In this document: positions 19,707 through 29,852 of the stretch, in pieces | Layout of the letters: each line of letters starts with the position of its first letter | Position numbering within the stretch: position 1 is the stretch's first letter | DNA from: Bdellovibrionota bacterium | GTDB lineage: Bacteria; Bdellovibrionota_C; UBA2361; OMII01 | DNA length: 64,000 bases | Assembly (NCBI GenBank): GCA_044345405.1 | Contig: JBIJBE010000006.1 | Span: forward strand, 32,001-96,000 | Direction: 5' to 3' | Translations under genes and position numbers: made by a program | The notes under the pieces: model-generated | Databases searched by the model: none | Told to the model about the DNA's origin: nothing | The model's input: the letters and a program-made list of their open reading frames with translations, nothing else

Positions 19707-19782
19707 GCCGCCCTAGCTCAGTTGGTAGAGCACTTCATTCGTAATGAAGGGGTCGCGTGTTCGATTCACGTGGGCGGCTCCA
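19707..19782 (+). tRNA. tRNA-Thr(CGT)
   Basis: GCCGCCC/GGGCGGC acceptor stem, D arm AGCTCAGTTGGTAGAGC, anticodon arm CTTCA-TTCGTAA-TGAAG, TTCGATT T-loop and encoded CCA. Confidence 0.97.
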
Positions 19783-23608: not shown

Positions 23609-24007
23609 CTACGCTTGGATTCCTACGTCGTTAAAGAATGTTCCTATCAACGACCGCAGAATAAAGGATCCCACGGCGACGACGAGGAGGCTTAACGATG
23701 CCTTGTACTGACCGAAGGCGGCAGACATGATCGCGCCAACTCCAGCGGCTGCCATGATCAACGCTCCAAACGCCCCCTCGAGGTAGGTCATAATCGCATT
23801 GACCGCGGCATCGATCCTCTCGGCGTTGTACTGAATAGCCGCCCCGGAGCTGACTTGCGCCATGGCGTCATCCACTACGCCGGCAACAACAATTGCCGTA
23901 CCCACCGCGAAAAGCGCGAATGAGAACACCGACTCAGCCCGAGGGCCTCCAAACACCGAGCGTCCACGAACGCTCGGCACACACGTATCCGTTGTGTCGT
24001 TCTTCAT
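23609..24007 (-). CDS. TrbC/VirB2/IcmD-like pilin-type membrane protein
   Basis: Long signal-like N-terminus ending AMA-Q, then two Gly/Ala-rich hydrophobic helices. Confidence 0.55.
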   Translation of the reverse strand: MKNDTTDTCVPSVRGRSVFGGPRAESVFSFALFAVGTAIVVAGVVDDAMAQVSSGAAIQYNAERIDAAVNAIMTYLEGAFGALIMAAAGVGAIMSAAFGQYKASLSLLVVAVGSFILRSLIGTFFNDVGIQA

Positions 24008-24397: not shown

Positions 24398-24477
24398 ACC
24401 CTCTGCGGGGGTTTATGACCGCACCCGCATTCACGGTGGATGTTTGCAAACCATCCCGGACGCAAAAGGAGTTGCGT

Positions 24478-24930
24478 ATGAGCGTACGAGGACTTAGTGG
24501 ATATACCCTTTCATGGGTTCAACAACGTGGCGGGGCCCAACCCCAGAAAGCCACCTTCTCCGAGGACAAAGCTCGGAAATCATCAAACGAAGCTCGCATA
24601 ATCGAACAGGAAGGCTCTCAGGAGTTCTCAAAAGATGAACTCAAAAAGATGAGGGAGTTCATGGTCGGGATTGGGGAGCGGGTCGACTCCATAGATGGAG
24701 CCATCAATAACTTCGAGCGGATAGACACCAAGCGAAAGGGGGCGATCACCGCCGAGCAGGTGAAGGCATTCGAAAGCGCCTCAGCGGAAGGGGTCGTGCC
24801 TGCGCAACCTCTTATGCTCGACCCAAACGACGCTACCGCCCCAATGGCAAAGGCCCCGATGGAGAGCTACCTCAATAAATACACCGCCAAGACCCAACAG
24901 AAGACCTCGACATTCGAGCGAAGCGAGTAG
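24478..24930 (+). CDS. Small EF-hand-like protein
   Basis: FERIDTKRKGAITAEQV EF-loop-like motif; AAGGAG RBS before the ATG at 24478. Confidence 0.6.
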   Translation: MSVRGLSGYTLSWVQQRGGAQPQKATFSEDKARKSSNEARIIEQEGSQEFSKDELKKMREFMVGIGERVDSIDGAINNFERIDTKRKGAITAEQVKAFESASAEGVVPAQPLMLDPNDATAPMAKAPMESYLNKYTAKTQQKTSTFERSE

Positions 24931-25308
24931 CGCGTCCCATGCGGGTCTGAGTGTCCCACTCCCTGACAGACGTCCACGCTTTCGGGGGCCTGATTCCAGG
25001 CTAGAGCCCGGTATTCCCTTACAAAAGTAAGCGCTCAACCCTCAAGCTTAAAAAATCGCTTTATGGATAGGTAATTATCCTGCTATACTTATCGTATCTG
25101 GTGAATTTGTAGGAGGCGTCACGGTCCACCACAGCGAAAACATCAATCGCACCCCTCGACAACAAGCACTCTTCTGCGCGCTAAAATCCCCTCTTCGCAG
25201 TCATCCTCTCAACTCGAACCGTCACATTCTCAACACGATTGGGTATCATTTTATCGTTCCTATAGTTAATCTACGTGTCTATTTGCCTAATGGAGGATCC
25301 CGCGAACT

Positions 25309-25695
25309 ATGAGAAAAAACCTCGCTGTAGTCGAAGCTACCAAAGATGAGTCTTTGGCCGTATCCAAGCAGATCGTACAGGCCTGTGAAGAAGTAAAGGC
25401 AACCGAGGTCGTAGTTCTTGATGTCGCGTCCGTGTCAGACTTCGCGGACTATTTCATCGTGGCGAGTGGGCGTTCCGATCGTCAGGTTCAGGGAATCACC
25501 AATAGGGTGATCGAAGAATTAGCCAAGGTCGGAGTTCGACCTCTCTCAGTAGAGGGATATGAGGATGGTCAATGGGTCCTCATCGACTGCGGCGATGTCG
25601 TCGCGCACGTATTCTACGAGCCGGTTCGCTCGGAGTACGACCTTGAGAGCTTGTGGATGCGGGCTCGTAAGCTTGATCTCGTTAAGGCGGCCTAA
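25309..25695 (+). CDS. rsfS: Ribosome silencing factor RsfS
   Basis: DYFIVASGRSDRQV, WVLIDCGDVVAHVF and YDLESLW. Confidence 0.95.
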   Translation: MRKNLAVVEATKDESLAVSKQIVQACEEVKATEVVVLDVASVSDFADYFIVASGRSDRQVQGITNRVIEELAKVGVRPLSVEGYEDGQWVLIDCGDVVAHVFYEPVRSEYDLESLWMRARKLDLVKAA

Positions 25696-25820: not shown

Positions 25821-26077
25821 AGTCATCATAGTGCATCCCTTTGTACACTGCGGATCGCAAGAGGTTCTGGGCAAGGGCAAGGGAGCCAGGAGGCTAAATA
25901 CCGTTCTATTTCAACACCCTGTAGTACGACTCAAACCGATGAGCTCTCATACCGGTAATAAAGGTCATGGCCCTTCTCGTGGTTTTTAGTCACCTAAAAA
26001 GGCCTAAGCCTTGTTCTGCCTAGCTCATCATGTCACGATCGAGGCCCGGTTAATTGTATACGTACGCAGAAGGAACC

Positions 26078-26968
26078 ATGTACCACGGAGATGTTGAGAA
26101 TAAGAACGAGCCATTCAGCTTCATGAATATCGTCAAGCAGGGAGTGTTCTGGTCTGTACACCTCGCCTGCCTTGCGGTCATCTGGGTTGGTTGGAGCTGG
26201 ACCGCGGTAACGGTATGTCTCGCCCTCTACGTGATACGTATGTTCGCGATTACGGGCGTTTATCATCGCTACTTCTCGCACCGGTCGTACGACACAAGCA
26301 GGGTGTTTCAATTTCTCTTGGCGTTACTTGGAACCACAGCGGCTCAGAAGGGACCGATCTGGTGGGCCTCGCACCACCGCCATCACCACCGTCACTCAGA
26401 CACCGAAGAAGATATTCACTCACCGATCGTTCACGGTATCTACTTCTCGCATATCGGTTGGGTGTTGAGCTCTCAGTTCCTTGAGCCCCGCCTCGACCTC
26501 GTCAAGGATCTCACGAAATACAAAGAGCTCACCATTCTTGAGAAGTACAATGTGATTCCGGTGGTCCTTCTCGCGGTGTGCACATTCTTCCTTGGAGTGT
26601 ATCTCCAGAGCGCGCATCCCGAGCTTGGAACAAACGGTTGGCAGATGCTCGTATGGGGCTTCTTCATCAGCACCGTGCTGCTCTACCACGGCACGTTCTG
26701 CATCAACTCATTTACTCACCTGATTGGAAAGCGGCGATTCCCTTCCACCGACCACAGCCGCAACCACTGGTTCTTGGCCCTGATAACTCTCGGCGAAGGA
26801 TGGCACAACAATCACCACTACTATCCTGGTTCAGAGCGCCAGGGCTTCTACTGGTGGGAGATCGATGTCTCGCACTACATCTTAAAGGTGCTCTCATGGT
26901 TCGGCTTGGTATGGAATCTTCGCGTTCCTCCACAGCGTGTCTATGAGGCCGCTGGAAAGCTTTCGTAG
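26078..26968 (+). CDS. Acyl-CoA/acyl-lipid delta-9 desaturase
   Basis: His boxes HRYFSH, HRHHHRH and GEGWHNNHH, plus WWEID. Confidence 0.93.
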   Translation: MYHGDVENKNEPFSFMNIVKQGVFWSVHLACLAVIWVGWSWTAVTVCLALYVIRMFAITGVYHRYFSHRSYDTSRVFQFLLALLGTTAAQKGPIWWASHHRHHHRHSDTEEDIHSPIVHGIYFSHIGWVLSSQFLEPRLDLVKDLTKYKELTILEKYNVIPVVLLAVCTFFLGVYLQSAHPELGTNGWQMLVWGFFISTVLLYHGTFCINSFTHLIGKRRFPSTDHSRNHWFLALITLGEGWHNNHHYYPGSERQGFYWWEIDVSHYILKVLSWFGLVWNLRVPPQRVYEAAGKLS

Positions 26969-27029
26969 TTTGTTTTCACTATGAGGCGAGTCATCGCGGC
27001 ATCTCGCGTCCCGCGGTACCTTCACACTC

Positions 27030-27261
27030 ATAAGAACGTAGGGAAGGCCGTTACACAGCTCACCCTGAGTAATGGACGATTAGATTGCTCCTTCGCTTGT
27101 CGAGGGAGATTGGTTCCCCAGTTGGTTTAATCACTAGATTGAGCCGTTCAGTAGAGGGACTAAGCCGGGAATGCCTACGATACTGCTGAGGTAGTAGGTA
27201 CCGGTGATCTAATGAACTCTGCGCTCGGAACCCGACTATAACTGGTAGTCGGGTTTTTTTT
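27030..27261 (+). ncRNA. Unclassified structured RNA, copy 1, with intrinsic terminator
   Basis: Closing stem gaacgtaggg/ctctgcgctc encloses several helices; terminator aacccgacta...tagtcgggtt+T run. Differences from copy 2 mostly preserve pairing. Confidence 0.7.
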
Positions 27262-27399
27262 ACCTCCATGCCGGACACATGAGCCAACGTGACCGACGAT
27301 GAAGCGCACAAGCTATAGGTCGCTGGGTAAATTTCGTAAATTGTTTTCAACCTAATCCCAATCATCGCGGCATCTCGCGTCCCGCGGTACCTTCACAAT

Positions 27400-27630
27400 C
27401 ACAGAACGCAGGGAAGGCTGTTACTCAGCTCACCCTGAGTAATGGACGATTAGGTTGCTCCTTCGTTTACCGAGGGAGATTGGTTCCCCAGTTGGTCTAG
27501 CCTAAAAATTAGATCGTTCAGTAGAGGAACTAAGCCGGGGATGCCTGCGATACTACTGAGGTAGTAGGTACCGGTGGTCTAATGAACTCTGCGCTCGGAA
27601 CCCGACTATAACTGGTAGTCGGGTTTTTTT
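27400..27630 (+). ncRNA. Unclassified structured RNA, copy 2, with intrinsic terminator
   Basis: Near-identical repeat offset by about 370 bp; the terminator ends 27 nt before the AI-2E start codon. Confidence 0.7.
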
Positions 27631-27657
27631 ACCTCCATGCCGGACACATGAGGAGCC

Positions 27658-28722
27658 GTGACCGACGATGAAGCGCACAAGCTATCAATTCGGGAACCGT
27701 ACCTTCCGTACAGTCAGTCACTAGCGCTAGGACTCACCACTCTGTGGTTTATCTATCTCTGCGCCTCGATCGTTAAGCCGTTTTTTTCGGTGCTCGCATG
27801 GTCACTCGCGCTCGCGGTAGCTTCCTATCCCGTCTCATCGTGGCTTAAACAACGAATTCGCAGTCGTTCGCTCGCCTCATTTCTCGCGCTTACCCTCGCG
27901 ACAGTTGTTATCTTTGTTCCGACGCTATGGGTATTGCGGATCCTTATTAACGCCGCGGCTGAGAATATCACGAGCGTCATTCAACAGTCCGGCCTGCGTG
28001 TATGGCTCGATCCTACGACGGCCCCTCCCCGCCTCGCCCCGCTCATGGTGTGGCTTGAGCAATCGCTCCATCTCCAACAGCTCGTCACTGATTTCGTGGC
28101 ATCGGTGGGGCAGCGGTTACCTCAACTTATTACGATGTCGCTGATCGGACTTGTTCAGGTTTTGTTGATACTCTTCACCACATTTTTCTTTATGAGAGAC
28201 GGAGAGCTCTTCTTCTCTTACCTCAAATGGGGAGTCCCGCTCCCTGAACAACAAACGGAGAAGGCGGTGTTTAGGGTGCTCGATACGGTACACGCCTGTC
28301 TCTTTGGGGTTGTCCTGATGGCGGTGCTCCAGGGGGCGCTCGGGAGCGCGATCTTTTGGTGGCTGAGGCTCCCTCAACCGGCGCTGTGGGGGATCGTGAT
28401 GGGGCTGCTAGCCATAGTGCCGTACCTAGGCGCGTTTGTGATCTGGATTCCCACCGCTTTCGTCCTCGCTCTGCATGGAAGATGGAGCGACGCGGTTGTG
28501 CTGGTGATATGGGGAACGATCGTCATAGGACTCGCGGACAACTTTCTCTATCCCGTTCTTGTCGGGAAGCGACTTCACTACCACACCCTTCTCATTTTTC
28601 TCTTCATATTGGGAGGTGTGTTTGTATTCGGGAGCGCGGGGATCGTGGTGGGGCCGATCGTTCTAAGCGCGACCCACAGTCTGATCGCGTTGTGGAACGA
28701 TGGGGAAATCCGTCGACGGTAA
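27658..28722 (+). CDS. AI-2E (UPF0118/PerM) family transporter
   Basis: FFFMRDG, LQG, IVPYLGAFVIWIP, DNFLYP and GIVVGP; GTG start after AGGAG. Confidence 0.92.
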   Translation: MTDDEAHKLSIREPYLPYSQSLALGLTTLWFIYLCASIVKPFFSVLAWSLALAVASYPVSSWLKQRIRSRSLASFLALTLATVVIFVPTLWVLRILINAAAENITSVIQQSGLRVWLDPTTAPPRLAPLMVWLEQSLHLQQLVTDFVASVGQRLPQLITMSLIGLVQVLLILFTTFFFMRDGELFFSYLKWGVPLPEQQTEKAVFRVLDTVHACLFGVVLMAVLQGALGSAIFWWLRLPQPALWGIVMGLLAIVPYLGAFVIWIPTAFVLALHGRWSDAVVLVIWGTIVIGLADNFLYPVLVGKRLHYHTLLIFLFILGGVFVFGSAGIVVGPIVLSATHSLIALWNDGEIRRR

Positions 28723-28795: not shown

Positions 28796-29353
28796 TTAGT
28801 GCGCGGATGGTTGCTCAGATGGTGCCTCTCCTCGCCCCTTCCCCGCCGGCTTTTCAAGTTGTCGCGGAGCGCCCGGCTGGACCTGAATACGTCGGGCTTG
28901 CAGACGGGACTGCTCGGTTTTTGGCAGAGATACGGTGAGCACTCCTCGGTCGAAGTTCGCCTGTATCTGACTCTCCTGGACTTCTACCCGAAGGGGGATT
29001 CGTCGCTCAAACGCGCCATATCTCCACTCGGAGTAGCGGGCGCCACGGATCTTCGACTCACGTTGCTCCTCCTCTTTCTTTTCACCTTTAAGAACGAGGT
29101 AGCCTGGCTCGAAGGTGACCTCGATATCGCTCTCCTTCATGCCAGGAAGCTCTGCCTGGACTCGGATCTCTCGCTCATCCTCCGACACGGAGACCTCGGG
29201 TTGAAACTCGCGCTGACGAATGGACGAGACTCCGACCGGCTCCCACACGTCCTGAAGCGCGGAGTTAATCGCTCGGCGCATCTGACGAATAATCGGGGCG
29301 AAATCACTGCCAAAGAACTCTTGTGGAATAAGTGGGTACTCACTGCGTGGCAT
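28796..29353 (-). CDS. Hsp20/alpha-crystallin small heat shock protein
   Basis: AELPGM, LVLKGEK, YGAFERRIPL and GVLTVSLPK; GGAGG RBS favours the ATG at 29353. Confidence 0.93.
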   Translation of the reverse strand: MPRSEYPLIPQEFFGSDFAPIIRQMRRAINSALQDVWEPVGVSSIRQREFQPEVSVSEDEREIRVQAELPGMKESDIEVTFEPGYLVLKGEKKEEEQRESKIRGARYSEWRYGAFERRIPLRVEVQESQIQANFDRGVLTVSLPKTEQSRLQARRIQVQPGAPRQLEKPAGKGRGEAPSEQPSAH

Positions 29354-29468
29354 AGAAACCTCCATAGGTACATAGTTTAGCTCGGGAACATTCCCGCACT
29401 AGGAGGGTACCGTTGAACTTCGACGCCGCTCATGACTGAGGTCATTTGCGGAGGGCGCGCTGAGTTCG

Positions 29469-29852
29469 CTACGCCGCTTGTGTAAGAGCTATCTGCCGAT
29501 GACAGGAAGAGCAGTTCTCATAGAACGGATACTGCTCTTGGTTGGTTAAAACGTTAAGTGGCTTATGGCAGGCGGGACAATCAACCTTCGCCGAGAGGAT
29601 CTTGGTTTTTACACGGAAGGTGTAGATAGTCATAATGGGCGTTACCACAAGGAGACCAAGCGGCACCAAGAAGAAGTGCGCGACAGGAATAAATACGCAC
29701 AACACAGTGGCCCCAAGACATTTGAGCGCCATCATCCATGCTCGTTTAATACGCCCCTGTTCGCTAAACTCAAGCACCTCCATGGTGCCGTACGTTGTTA
29801 CCTCATTACTTGTCGCGAGTATCTTTCGGGTGTGTTGGGTGGTGTGGTGCAT
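29469..29852 (-). CDS. Small membrane protein with C-terminal zinc ribbon
   Basis: Two TMs (FIPVAHFFLVP) followed by CPAC...CSSC. Confidence 0.7.
   Translation of the reverse strand: MHHTTQHTRKILATSNEVTTYGTMEVLEFSEQGRIKRAWMMALKCLGATVLCVFIPVAHFFLVPLGLLVVTPIMTIYTFRVKTKILSAKVDCPACHKPLNVLTNQEQYPFYENCSSCHRQIALTQAA

Follow-up and report, generated by a model that had tools for sequence, protein, structure and literature searches.

An intergenic region that has been duplicated in tandem ahead of a transporter gene raises the question of whether it controls that gene or encodes an RNA with a role of its own. Such a region, of ~370 bp and present twice, is flanked upstream by a fatty-acid desaturase gene and downstream by an AI-2E family transporter gene in the 64,000-nucleotide (nt) stretch analysed here (hereafter the window), which comes from the genome of a Bdellovibrionota bacterium (genus OMII01; GenBank assembly GCA_044345405.1, contig JBIJBE010000006.1, positions 32,001 to 96,000 of the forward strand). 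Covariation among homologues, a promoter-like element and a terminator for each copy, contigs from RNA libraries and a variable gene neighbourhood together lead us to favour, with moderate confidence, an independently transcribed, processed and stable structured non-coding RNA (ncRNA) that is kept as a pair of sibling paralogues.

A covarying structured RNA in two copies

Each copy can be folded into an RNA of ~190 nt with nine helices, in which the closing helix P1 (27034-27043 paired with 27217-27226 in copy A) encloses a hairpin, P2, and a stem, P3, the latter in turn enclosing three arms. An alignment of 15 sequences to the covariance model, comprising 66 pairs, has standard pairs in 96.8% of its pair cells and compensatory changes, affecting both sides, in 34 of the 66 pairs; all genomes compared here and below are metagenome assemblies from one genus and are kin, so that counts are not independent. 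None of 500 column shuffles reached the observed pairing or compensatory value, and pairing fell to 31-42% in a control in which the partners were slid by one to three columns. Covariation supports one three-way and one four-way junction, and there are invariant nucleotides at the junctions. The folds of both copies were better than those of all 200 dinucleotide shuffles (z = -4.5 and -4.3 for A and B, respectively). The frequent G-U pairs, which would be A-C on the opposite strand, and the T run that follows the last hairpin fix the strand as plus.

The stems named in the initial annotation of this region were all recovered by RNAalifold and by the covariance-model alignment, each with covariation support. 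Its remark that nearly every difference between the copies falls in a loop or preserves pairing was roughly right: copies A and B differ at 26 of 203 aligned columns, 12 of these differences being unpaired and the rest touching 13 pairs, of which 11 stay paired and two break. The suggestion made there that both copies are under structural selection is likewise supported by covariation among the 15 homologues.

Promoter-like elements, terminators and the search for an antiterminator

The units share the upstream consensus (A/G)TGA(C/G)-N5-(A/G)TCAT, followed after 22 nt by TANNNT, with P1 beginning 8-10 nt further on and the spacing fixed. The pattern TCA[TA]-N21-23-TANNNT is present in 36 of the 39 regions scanned (shuffled mean 2.0, maximum 7) and the full palindrome in 23 of the 39 (0.03 in shuffles), both contrasts being inflated by kinship. 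The TACCTT hexamer, earlier noted as -10-like before each copy, is therefore real and part of a conserved promoter-like element, and the poor -35 noted with it is accounted for by the conserved palindrome that occupies the -35 place. If transcription started ~7 nt past the hexamer, the palindrome would be centred near -41.5, the position of a class II activator site. A palindrome with a -10-like hexamer at the same spacing lies upstream of hsp20, and this element is conserved in relatives, preceding the gene at 13 of 21 loci with an identified hsp20 (two of these being from one genome). The RNA units are probably co-regulated with hsp20.

Two further observations concern hsp20-type sequences. 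A near-identical palindrome (TGACCTCGGTCATGAG) with a -10-like hexamer occurs outside the window at ~1440 on the minus strand of contig C45 of genome G000, and the gene behind it encodes a 179-amino acid (aa) protein with a signal-peptide-like start. The hsp20 5' leader itself carries a small conserved hairpin, CGGGAATGTTCCCG (29383-29396, minus strand), in most relatives that have this RNA sequence type, which could be a thermometer-like or stability element.

As initially annotated, a strong intrinsic terminator follows each RNA copy. P1 does not overlap it, and in minimum-energy folds the two form together. No conserved antiterminator was identified in any of 13 sequences, pairing between the 5' arm of the terminator and the RNA core being not clearly above that in shuffles (at most ~1.7 standard deviations, at differing places), and we found no mutually exclusive terminator and antiterminator involving the closing helix. 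An antiterminator formed through GGUUCC/GGAACC was considered and rejected as lacking covariation and being no better than shuffles.

Transcripts in metatranscriptomes

Six RNA libraries matched 8-10% of the words of a 3-kb stretch, and three of these, from three studies, were mapped. All three mapped metatranscriptomes (X19, X20 and X22) contain contigs matching both copies, and all six contigs have zero or one mismatch (Table 1). In X20, positions 27223 and 27593 are directly followed by 14 adapter letters, which we take to be the start of the Illumina adapter. These positions, homologous and 370 nt apart, fall within the 3' strand of P1, ~6 nt short of the terminator hairpin. A DNA contig continues past 27223, to 27237, and the X19 contig matching copy A passes through the terminator. 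The contigs suggest that the mature 3' end is made by processing, and at contig level the RNA combines a terminator of its own with a discrete transcript, as a stand-alone ncRNA would. No organism-specific contig for the flanking genes was present in the three RNA libraries, an absence that was not used as evidence.

Probable independence from the neighbouring genes

It had been proposed at the outset that a constant function of the downstream gene would imply action in cis and a variable one action in trans, and the tabulated downstream genes fall on the trans side, the association with the AI-2E gene class not being constant. In genome G022 the RNA is intact, with the top covariance score (228-237 bits), while only ~140 nt of AI-2E and two desaturase pieces of ~75 nt are left and a convergent gene comes next. 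In G026 the RNA and its terminator are followed by ~470 nt without an open reading frame (ORF) of at least 90 aa and then by a convergent hsp20. Three other genomes (G032, G016 and G034) have a related unit after the desaturase gene, and no AI-2E was seen there, either in the downstream sequence (at least 1.2 kb) or in a genome-wide search (E<=1e-40). The upstream neighbour also varies, being a different, divergent and unrelated gene in G024 and G026. An AI-2E riboswitch is disfavoured by the occurrence of the unit without AI-2E, by the promoter-like element of each copy, by the absence of an antiterminator and by the RNA contigs with their adapter-marked end before the terminator. Of the two alternatives left by the initial annotation, a stand-alone RNA kept as two paralogues is thus the better supported, and a tandem riboswitch or attenuator controlling AI-2E is disfavoured.

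Proposed mechanism and competing explanations

In the reading that we favour, each unit would be a self-contained gene for a ~190-nt structured ncRNA. Transcription would be driven by the unit's own promoter, consisting of a TGA-N6-TCAT palindrome at the -35 place and a TANNNT -10, an element common to hsp20, and would end at the strong intrinsic terminator. The transcript would then be trimmed or cut to end within the 3' strand of P1, leaving a mature RNA with paired ends and nine helices. This RNA would act in trans, as a protein-binding or regulatory RNA, and would do no sensing for AI-2E; the two copies would be sibling paralogues retained by two species.

Several points weigh against this proposal. 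The evidence for expression consists not of raw reads but of contigs assembled from RNA libraries, which give no 5' ends, levels or strand, and the RNA contigs start where DNA contigs start and so are uninformative on the 5' end. The promoter motif in degenerate form occurs 7 times genome-wide, within the range of shuffled sequence (3-13), and thus delineates no regulon. Neither a target nor a seed or protein partner was found. The gene immediately after the RNA, on the same strand, is AI-2E in eight of the 10 genomes of this sequence type and in the majority of other genus members, and in G022 and G026 the genes could have been lost recently and the RNA retained by chance. The last terminator ends just 27 nt short of the AI-2E GTG, which leaves that gene little room for a promoter of its own, as would fit a leader; because of this short distance, AI-2E in this genome is probably reached only by read-through of the terminator. 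On the question of targets, duplex folding of the RNA against the 5' regions of the desaturase gene, AI-2E, hsp20, a 127-aa ORF and rsfS yielded nothing that stood out clearly from shuffles. Matches to the complement of the P2 loop are enriched genome-wide, but they lie within coding frames and were dismissed as a codon effect.

The position ahead of AI-2E and the short distance to its start are what would be expected of a cis-acting leader, a riboswitch or protein-controlled attenuator that senses a signal and sets passage through the terminator, with two serial units sharpening the response. Such a leader would also suit the related units found upstream of AI-2E homologues that are only 34-46% identical, the X19 contig that reads through the terminator, and a size and junction complexity like those of large aptamers. 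It does not sit well with units that are intact without AI-2E in five genomes (G022, G026, G032, G016 and G034), with a P1 that neither overlaps the terminator nor has a conserved alternative pairing, or with an X20 end that lies before the terminator hairpin and not in its U tract. Copy A moreover retains its promoter-like element though it feeds only into copy B, and fast sequence change between close species, within a single genus, is unusual for a metabolite aptamer. We therefore consider control of AI-2E in cis unlikely as the explanation of the RNA, and such a role could coexist with one in trans. A limited literature search found no paper linking AI-2E with a riboswitch.

The adapter-marked ends bear on a further possibility, namely a self-processing or catalytic RNA whose cleavage at the conserved site GCG^CUCGG by P1 would release it from the terminator or from the mRNA downstream. 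The adapter stands at homologous positions in both copies, within a motif conserved across sequence types (GCGCUCGG / GCGGCUUGG), and a complex multi-junction fold with invariant junction nucleotides would be in keeping with catalysis. However, host nucleases trimming back to a stable helix would give the same end, which is visible in contigs only, and no known ribozyme family matches; we judge self-cleavage very unlikely. The adjoining desaturase gene offers another source for the RNA, as a structured 3' untranslated region (UTR) of its mRNA that serves as a stability element or gives rise to a small RNA (sRNA) sharing the mRNA's terminator. In most members of the genus the unit does start 60-100 nt past the desaturase stop, on the same strand, with no other terminator in between. 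Yet the RNA is separated from the stop codon by a conserved promoter-like element, copy B lacks a desaturase gene ahead of it, only fragments of that gene are left in G022, and the units of G024 and G026 follow a divergent, unrelated gene, all of which makes a 3' UTR highly improbable. The separately transcribed ncRNA thus remains our preferred reading.

Distribution within the genus

Nine further genomes of the genus each yielded a single copy by BLAST and the covariance model, the sequence type being present by the covariance model in 10 of the 35 genus genomes, and a pattern scan of metagenomes added three contigs. No match was found outside the genus among 91 genomes of the order and 124 of the phylum, in a search whose pre-filter scored only 20-27 candidates per genome and which weak relatives could escape; a scan of viral contigs gave none either. 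The arrangement as such, a desaturase stop followed by a promoter-like element, a stably folding region of 100-250 nt and a strong terminator, was tallied in ~31 of the 35 genus genomes, G003 being cut by a contig end, G025 and G019 lacking the arrangement, and G004 and G013 not being scored. All 33 units fold better than shuffles (z -1.9 to -7.8). A second sequence type, in six genomes, has 69 predicted pairs of which 14 show compensatory changes, and the same topology as the window RNA; the covariance model of the window RNA gives weak full-length matches to it, of up to 17.8 bits. A third type is shorter, and fold stability is what joins the remaining sequence types, as putative members, to the family. 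Outside the genus, six desaturase loci from four genomes lack a unit of this kind. In sequence, the unit evolves fast between close species.

Other members of the genus carry RNA-like units in unusual contexts. Genome G009 (L037, 2661-3115, minus strand) has two of different sequence types in tandem, both equipped with a promoter-like element and a terminator. Two unlinked units occur in G022: one of the window type, with both flanking genes decayed (L047 on contig C106, 2641-3262), and one of a shorter type with an intact AI-2E (L039 on contig C61). This pair suggests that the whole locus passed from one species to another and that the genes, unlike the RNA, then decayed. The desaturase orthologue of G028 (L070, 506-1411) has two in-frame TAA stops and may be a pseudogene, and the RNA-like unit downstream of it looks intact.

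Origin of the duplication

A caution attached to the initial annotation was that the duplication might be a misassembly of strain variants. The genome is indeed a metagenome assembly of 85 contigs, and the copies differ by ~10%, like differences between species. This was checked and found not to be the case. The junction between the units, which fuses the AI-2E start to the desaturase end and is novel sequence, is identical in L048, a metagenome contig from a different species that has flanks 86% identical to the window and also carries two copies. It is also spanned by a separate contig from a DNA run, which covers 27231-27391 and shows three strain differences. Each copy pairs with its own L048 counterpart, at 10 differences for A and 12 for B, as against 25-32 between A and B. 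Since the junction is shared with this independent species contig, the duplication is not an assembly error, an explanation to which we give next to no credence.

The two B copies cluster together in the unit tree (100/98), and their clade is joined by the single copies of L049 and G030 (92/97). The duplication would accordingly either predate those splits, with later losses, or copy B would have been imported from a relative. Trees of the flanking genes gave no resolution with which to date the duplication against speciation. In copy A of L048 the GTG of the AI-2E start remnant has become GGG, so that the start codon is lost there. Identity between the window and L048 is mosaic, at 97-100% over the start of rsfS (window 25236-25475), 92-100% over the RNA cassette and 37-90% in between, a pattern that looks like recombination between species.

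Comparison with known RNA families

A search of the whole window against Rfam 15 at gathering thresholds gave a tRNA at 19707-19779 as its sole match, and scans of the loci of 11 relatives gave none. In a permissive scan of 26900-27800 the best match was NsiR1, at 22.9 bits against a gathering score of 39 and covering only the terminator, and the permissive matches were dismissed as terminator-like noise. No family thus reaches its gathering score at the RNA copies, in agreement with the failure of the initial annotation to match them to known consensus structures. Signal recognition particle (SRP) RNA, RNase P RNA and tmRNA were all detected above cut-offs elsewhere in the genome, and these identities were ruled out as roles already filled. 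A T-box, an idea prompted by the stretch GGTACCGG, was rejected because this is a strand of a covarying stem and is not conserved in G024, G026 or L050.

6S RNA is an abundant RNA with processed ends, the latter a point probably shared with the RNA described here, and is of similar length. It is a rod with a central bubble, whereas the present fold is compact, branched and supported by covariation, without a long irregular helix, and is confined to one genus. The 6S model (RF00013) finds nothing in the genome, which would formally leave that role unfilled, but this is a weak negative since in a control it detected 6S in only five of 14 known genomes; on fold and lack of a match, 6S RNA was rejected.

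Sibling sRNA genes such as PrrF1/PrrF2 and OmrA/OmrB are tandem paralogues, each with its own promoter and terminator, that are kept across species, as are the two copies here with their putative promoters. Those sRNAs are about 100 nt long, form simple hairpins and act by base pairing, whereas the present RNA, of ~190 nt, is built of nine covarying helices with two multi-helix junctions and yielded neither a seed nor a target. Tandem riboswitches with terminator platforms also place two folded domains in series, each followed by a terminator, upstream of a transporter gene. They differ from the present locus in that here each unit has a promoter-like element, no antiterminator was found and the unit outlasts the downstream gene.

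The closest precedent is the raiA motif RNA, or ModT (RF03072), which is about 200 nt in size and to which the present RNA does not belong. It is described as a multi-helix RNA upstream of a gene on the same strand, for which a role as a cis-acting riboswitch was at first proposed on account of its position and intricate fold before action in trans was demonstrated, and a short form and a terminator-extended form are described for it (PMC11706538). It is also described as highly abundant in cells (PMC12968392). The likeness lies in the multi-helix fold and the position upstream of a same-strand gene. In contrast to raiA, which is reported from more than 2,500 species and for which pseudoknots have been predicted, the present RNA is limited to one genus, has no Rfam match in the window or in the 11 relatives' loci, and has no identified pseudoknot.

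Organization of the locus

The earlier observation of a duplicated segment offset by about 370 bp was borne out, with the extent of the unit corrected to ~370 bp (Table 1). The copies align as three co-linear repeat blocks of 228 nt at 90%, 85 nt at 81% and 65 nt at 92% identity, spaced 369-371 nt apart. By pairwise alignment the repeat comprises the entire intergenic region and extends into the ORFs on either side, taking in ~23 nt of the desaturase 3' end and 28 nt of the AI-2E 5' end. The repeat region was also described as without a credible ORF, and the ORFs found there are indeed short and not conserved between copies A and B. The locus was found in 18 lake-water DNA runs, each with at least 72% of its words. 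Elsewhere in the window, three ORFs of 127-171 aa (23609-24007, minus; 24415-24930, plus; 29469-29852, minus) have no Pfam match, and the 127-aa ORF has CxxC pairs and a hydrophobic middle.

Table 1. Features of the duplicated RNA locus and matching RNA-library contigs, in window coordinates
Feature	Position	Strand	Basis and remarks
RNA copy A	27034-27226	+	covariance model 217-226 bits; suggested 3' end 27223
RNA copy B	27404-27596	+	covariance model 212-219 bits; same nine helices; suggested 3' end 27593
Promoter-like element, copy A	26982-27022	+	conserved motif scan; TGA-N6-TCAT palindrome, 22 nt, TACCTT (27017-27022)
Promoter-like element, copy B	27353-27393	+	left half-site TAA, not TGA; right half and spacer as in copy A; TACCTT 27388-27393
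Intrinsic terminator A	27227-27261	+	13-bp stem, T run 27254-27261; fold -18.3 kcal/mol
Intrinsic terminator B	27597-27630	+	T run ends 27 nt before AI-2E GTG
Duplication unit A	26946-27316	+	repeat families D1-D3, alignment; desaturase 3' end/flank, promoter-like element, RNA copy A, terminator, AI-2E 5' remnant
Duplication unit B	27317-27685	+	alignment; begins with decayed desaturase 3' end (27317-27339), finishes in first 28 nt of live AI-2E ORF
AI-2E start remnant	27289-27316	+	aligns with 27658-27685; non-coding, brought into unit A by the duplication
Fatty-acid desaturase gene	26054-26968	+	Pfam PF00487; commonest upstream neighbour of the RNA unit in the genus (synteny)
AI-2E family transporter gene	27658-28722	+	Pfam PF01594; frequent but dispensable downstream neighbour
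hsp20	28796-29365	-	convergent gene beyond AI-2E
hsp20 promoter-like element	29404-29444	-	upstream of hsp20; ATGAC-N4-GTCAT palindrome and TACCCT, spacing as in RNA units
X20 contig, copy A	27054-27223		depth 56.7
X20 contig, copy B	27426-27593		depth 99.6
X22 contig, copy A	27059-27223		depth 4.5
X22 contig, copy B	27418-27577		depth 6.4
X19 contig, copy A	27099-27285		depth 2.5
X19 contig, copy B	27441-27592		depth 3.7

Implications

Bacterial RNAs of such size, with two multi-helix junctions and strong covariation, are usually ribozymes, riboswitches or scaffolds of ribonucleoproteins (RNPs), and to our knowledge orphan classes of such large structured RNAs are few. A more ambitious proposal, which we regard as decidedly unlikely, is that these units form a new class of large, structured RNAs in bacteria that play an active biochemical part, as a self-processing ribozyme, an RNP core or a ligand sensor acting in trans. 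This class would be stress-induced together with hsp20, and would evolve fast and duplicate repeatedly while keeping one topology of P1, P2 and a multi-arm P3 domain. The RNA was found in lake and river RNA libraries, and its traits are unusual: it belongs to an uncultured freshwater lineage, is limited to one genus, occurs as paralogues and, in its second type, has changed quickly in sequence with its topology kept. Like raiA/ModT, it is a warning against taking every structured RNA with a terminator ahead of a transporter gene for a riboswitch. Should the shared palindrome prove to be a real operator, a structured RNA would be tied to the regulon of a small heat-shock gene in a lineage without known regulation.

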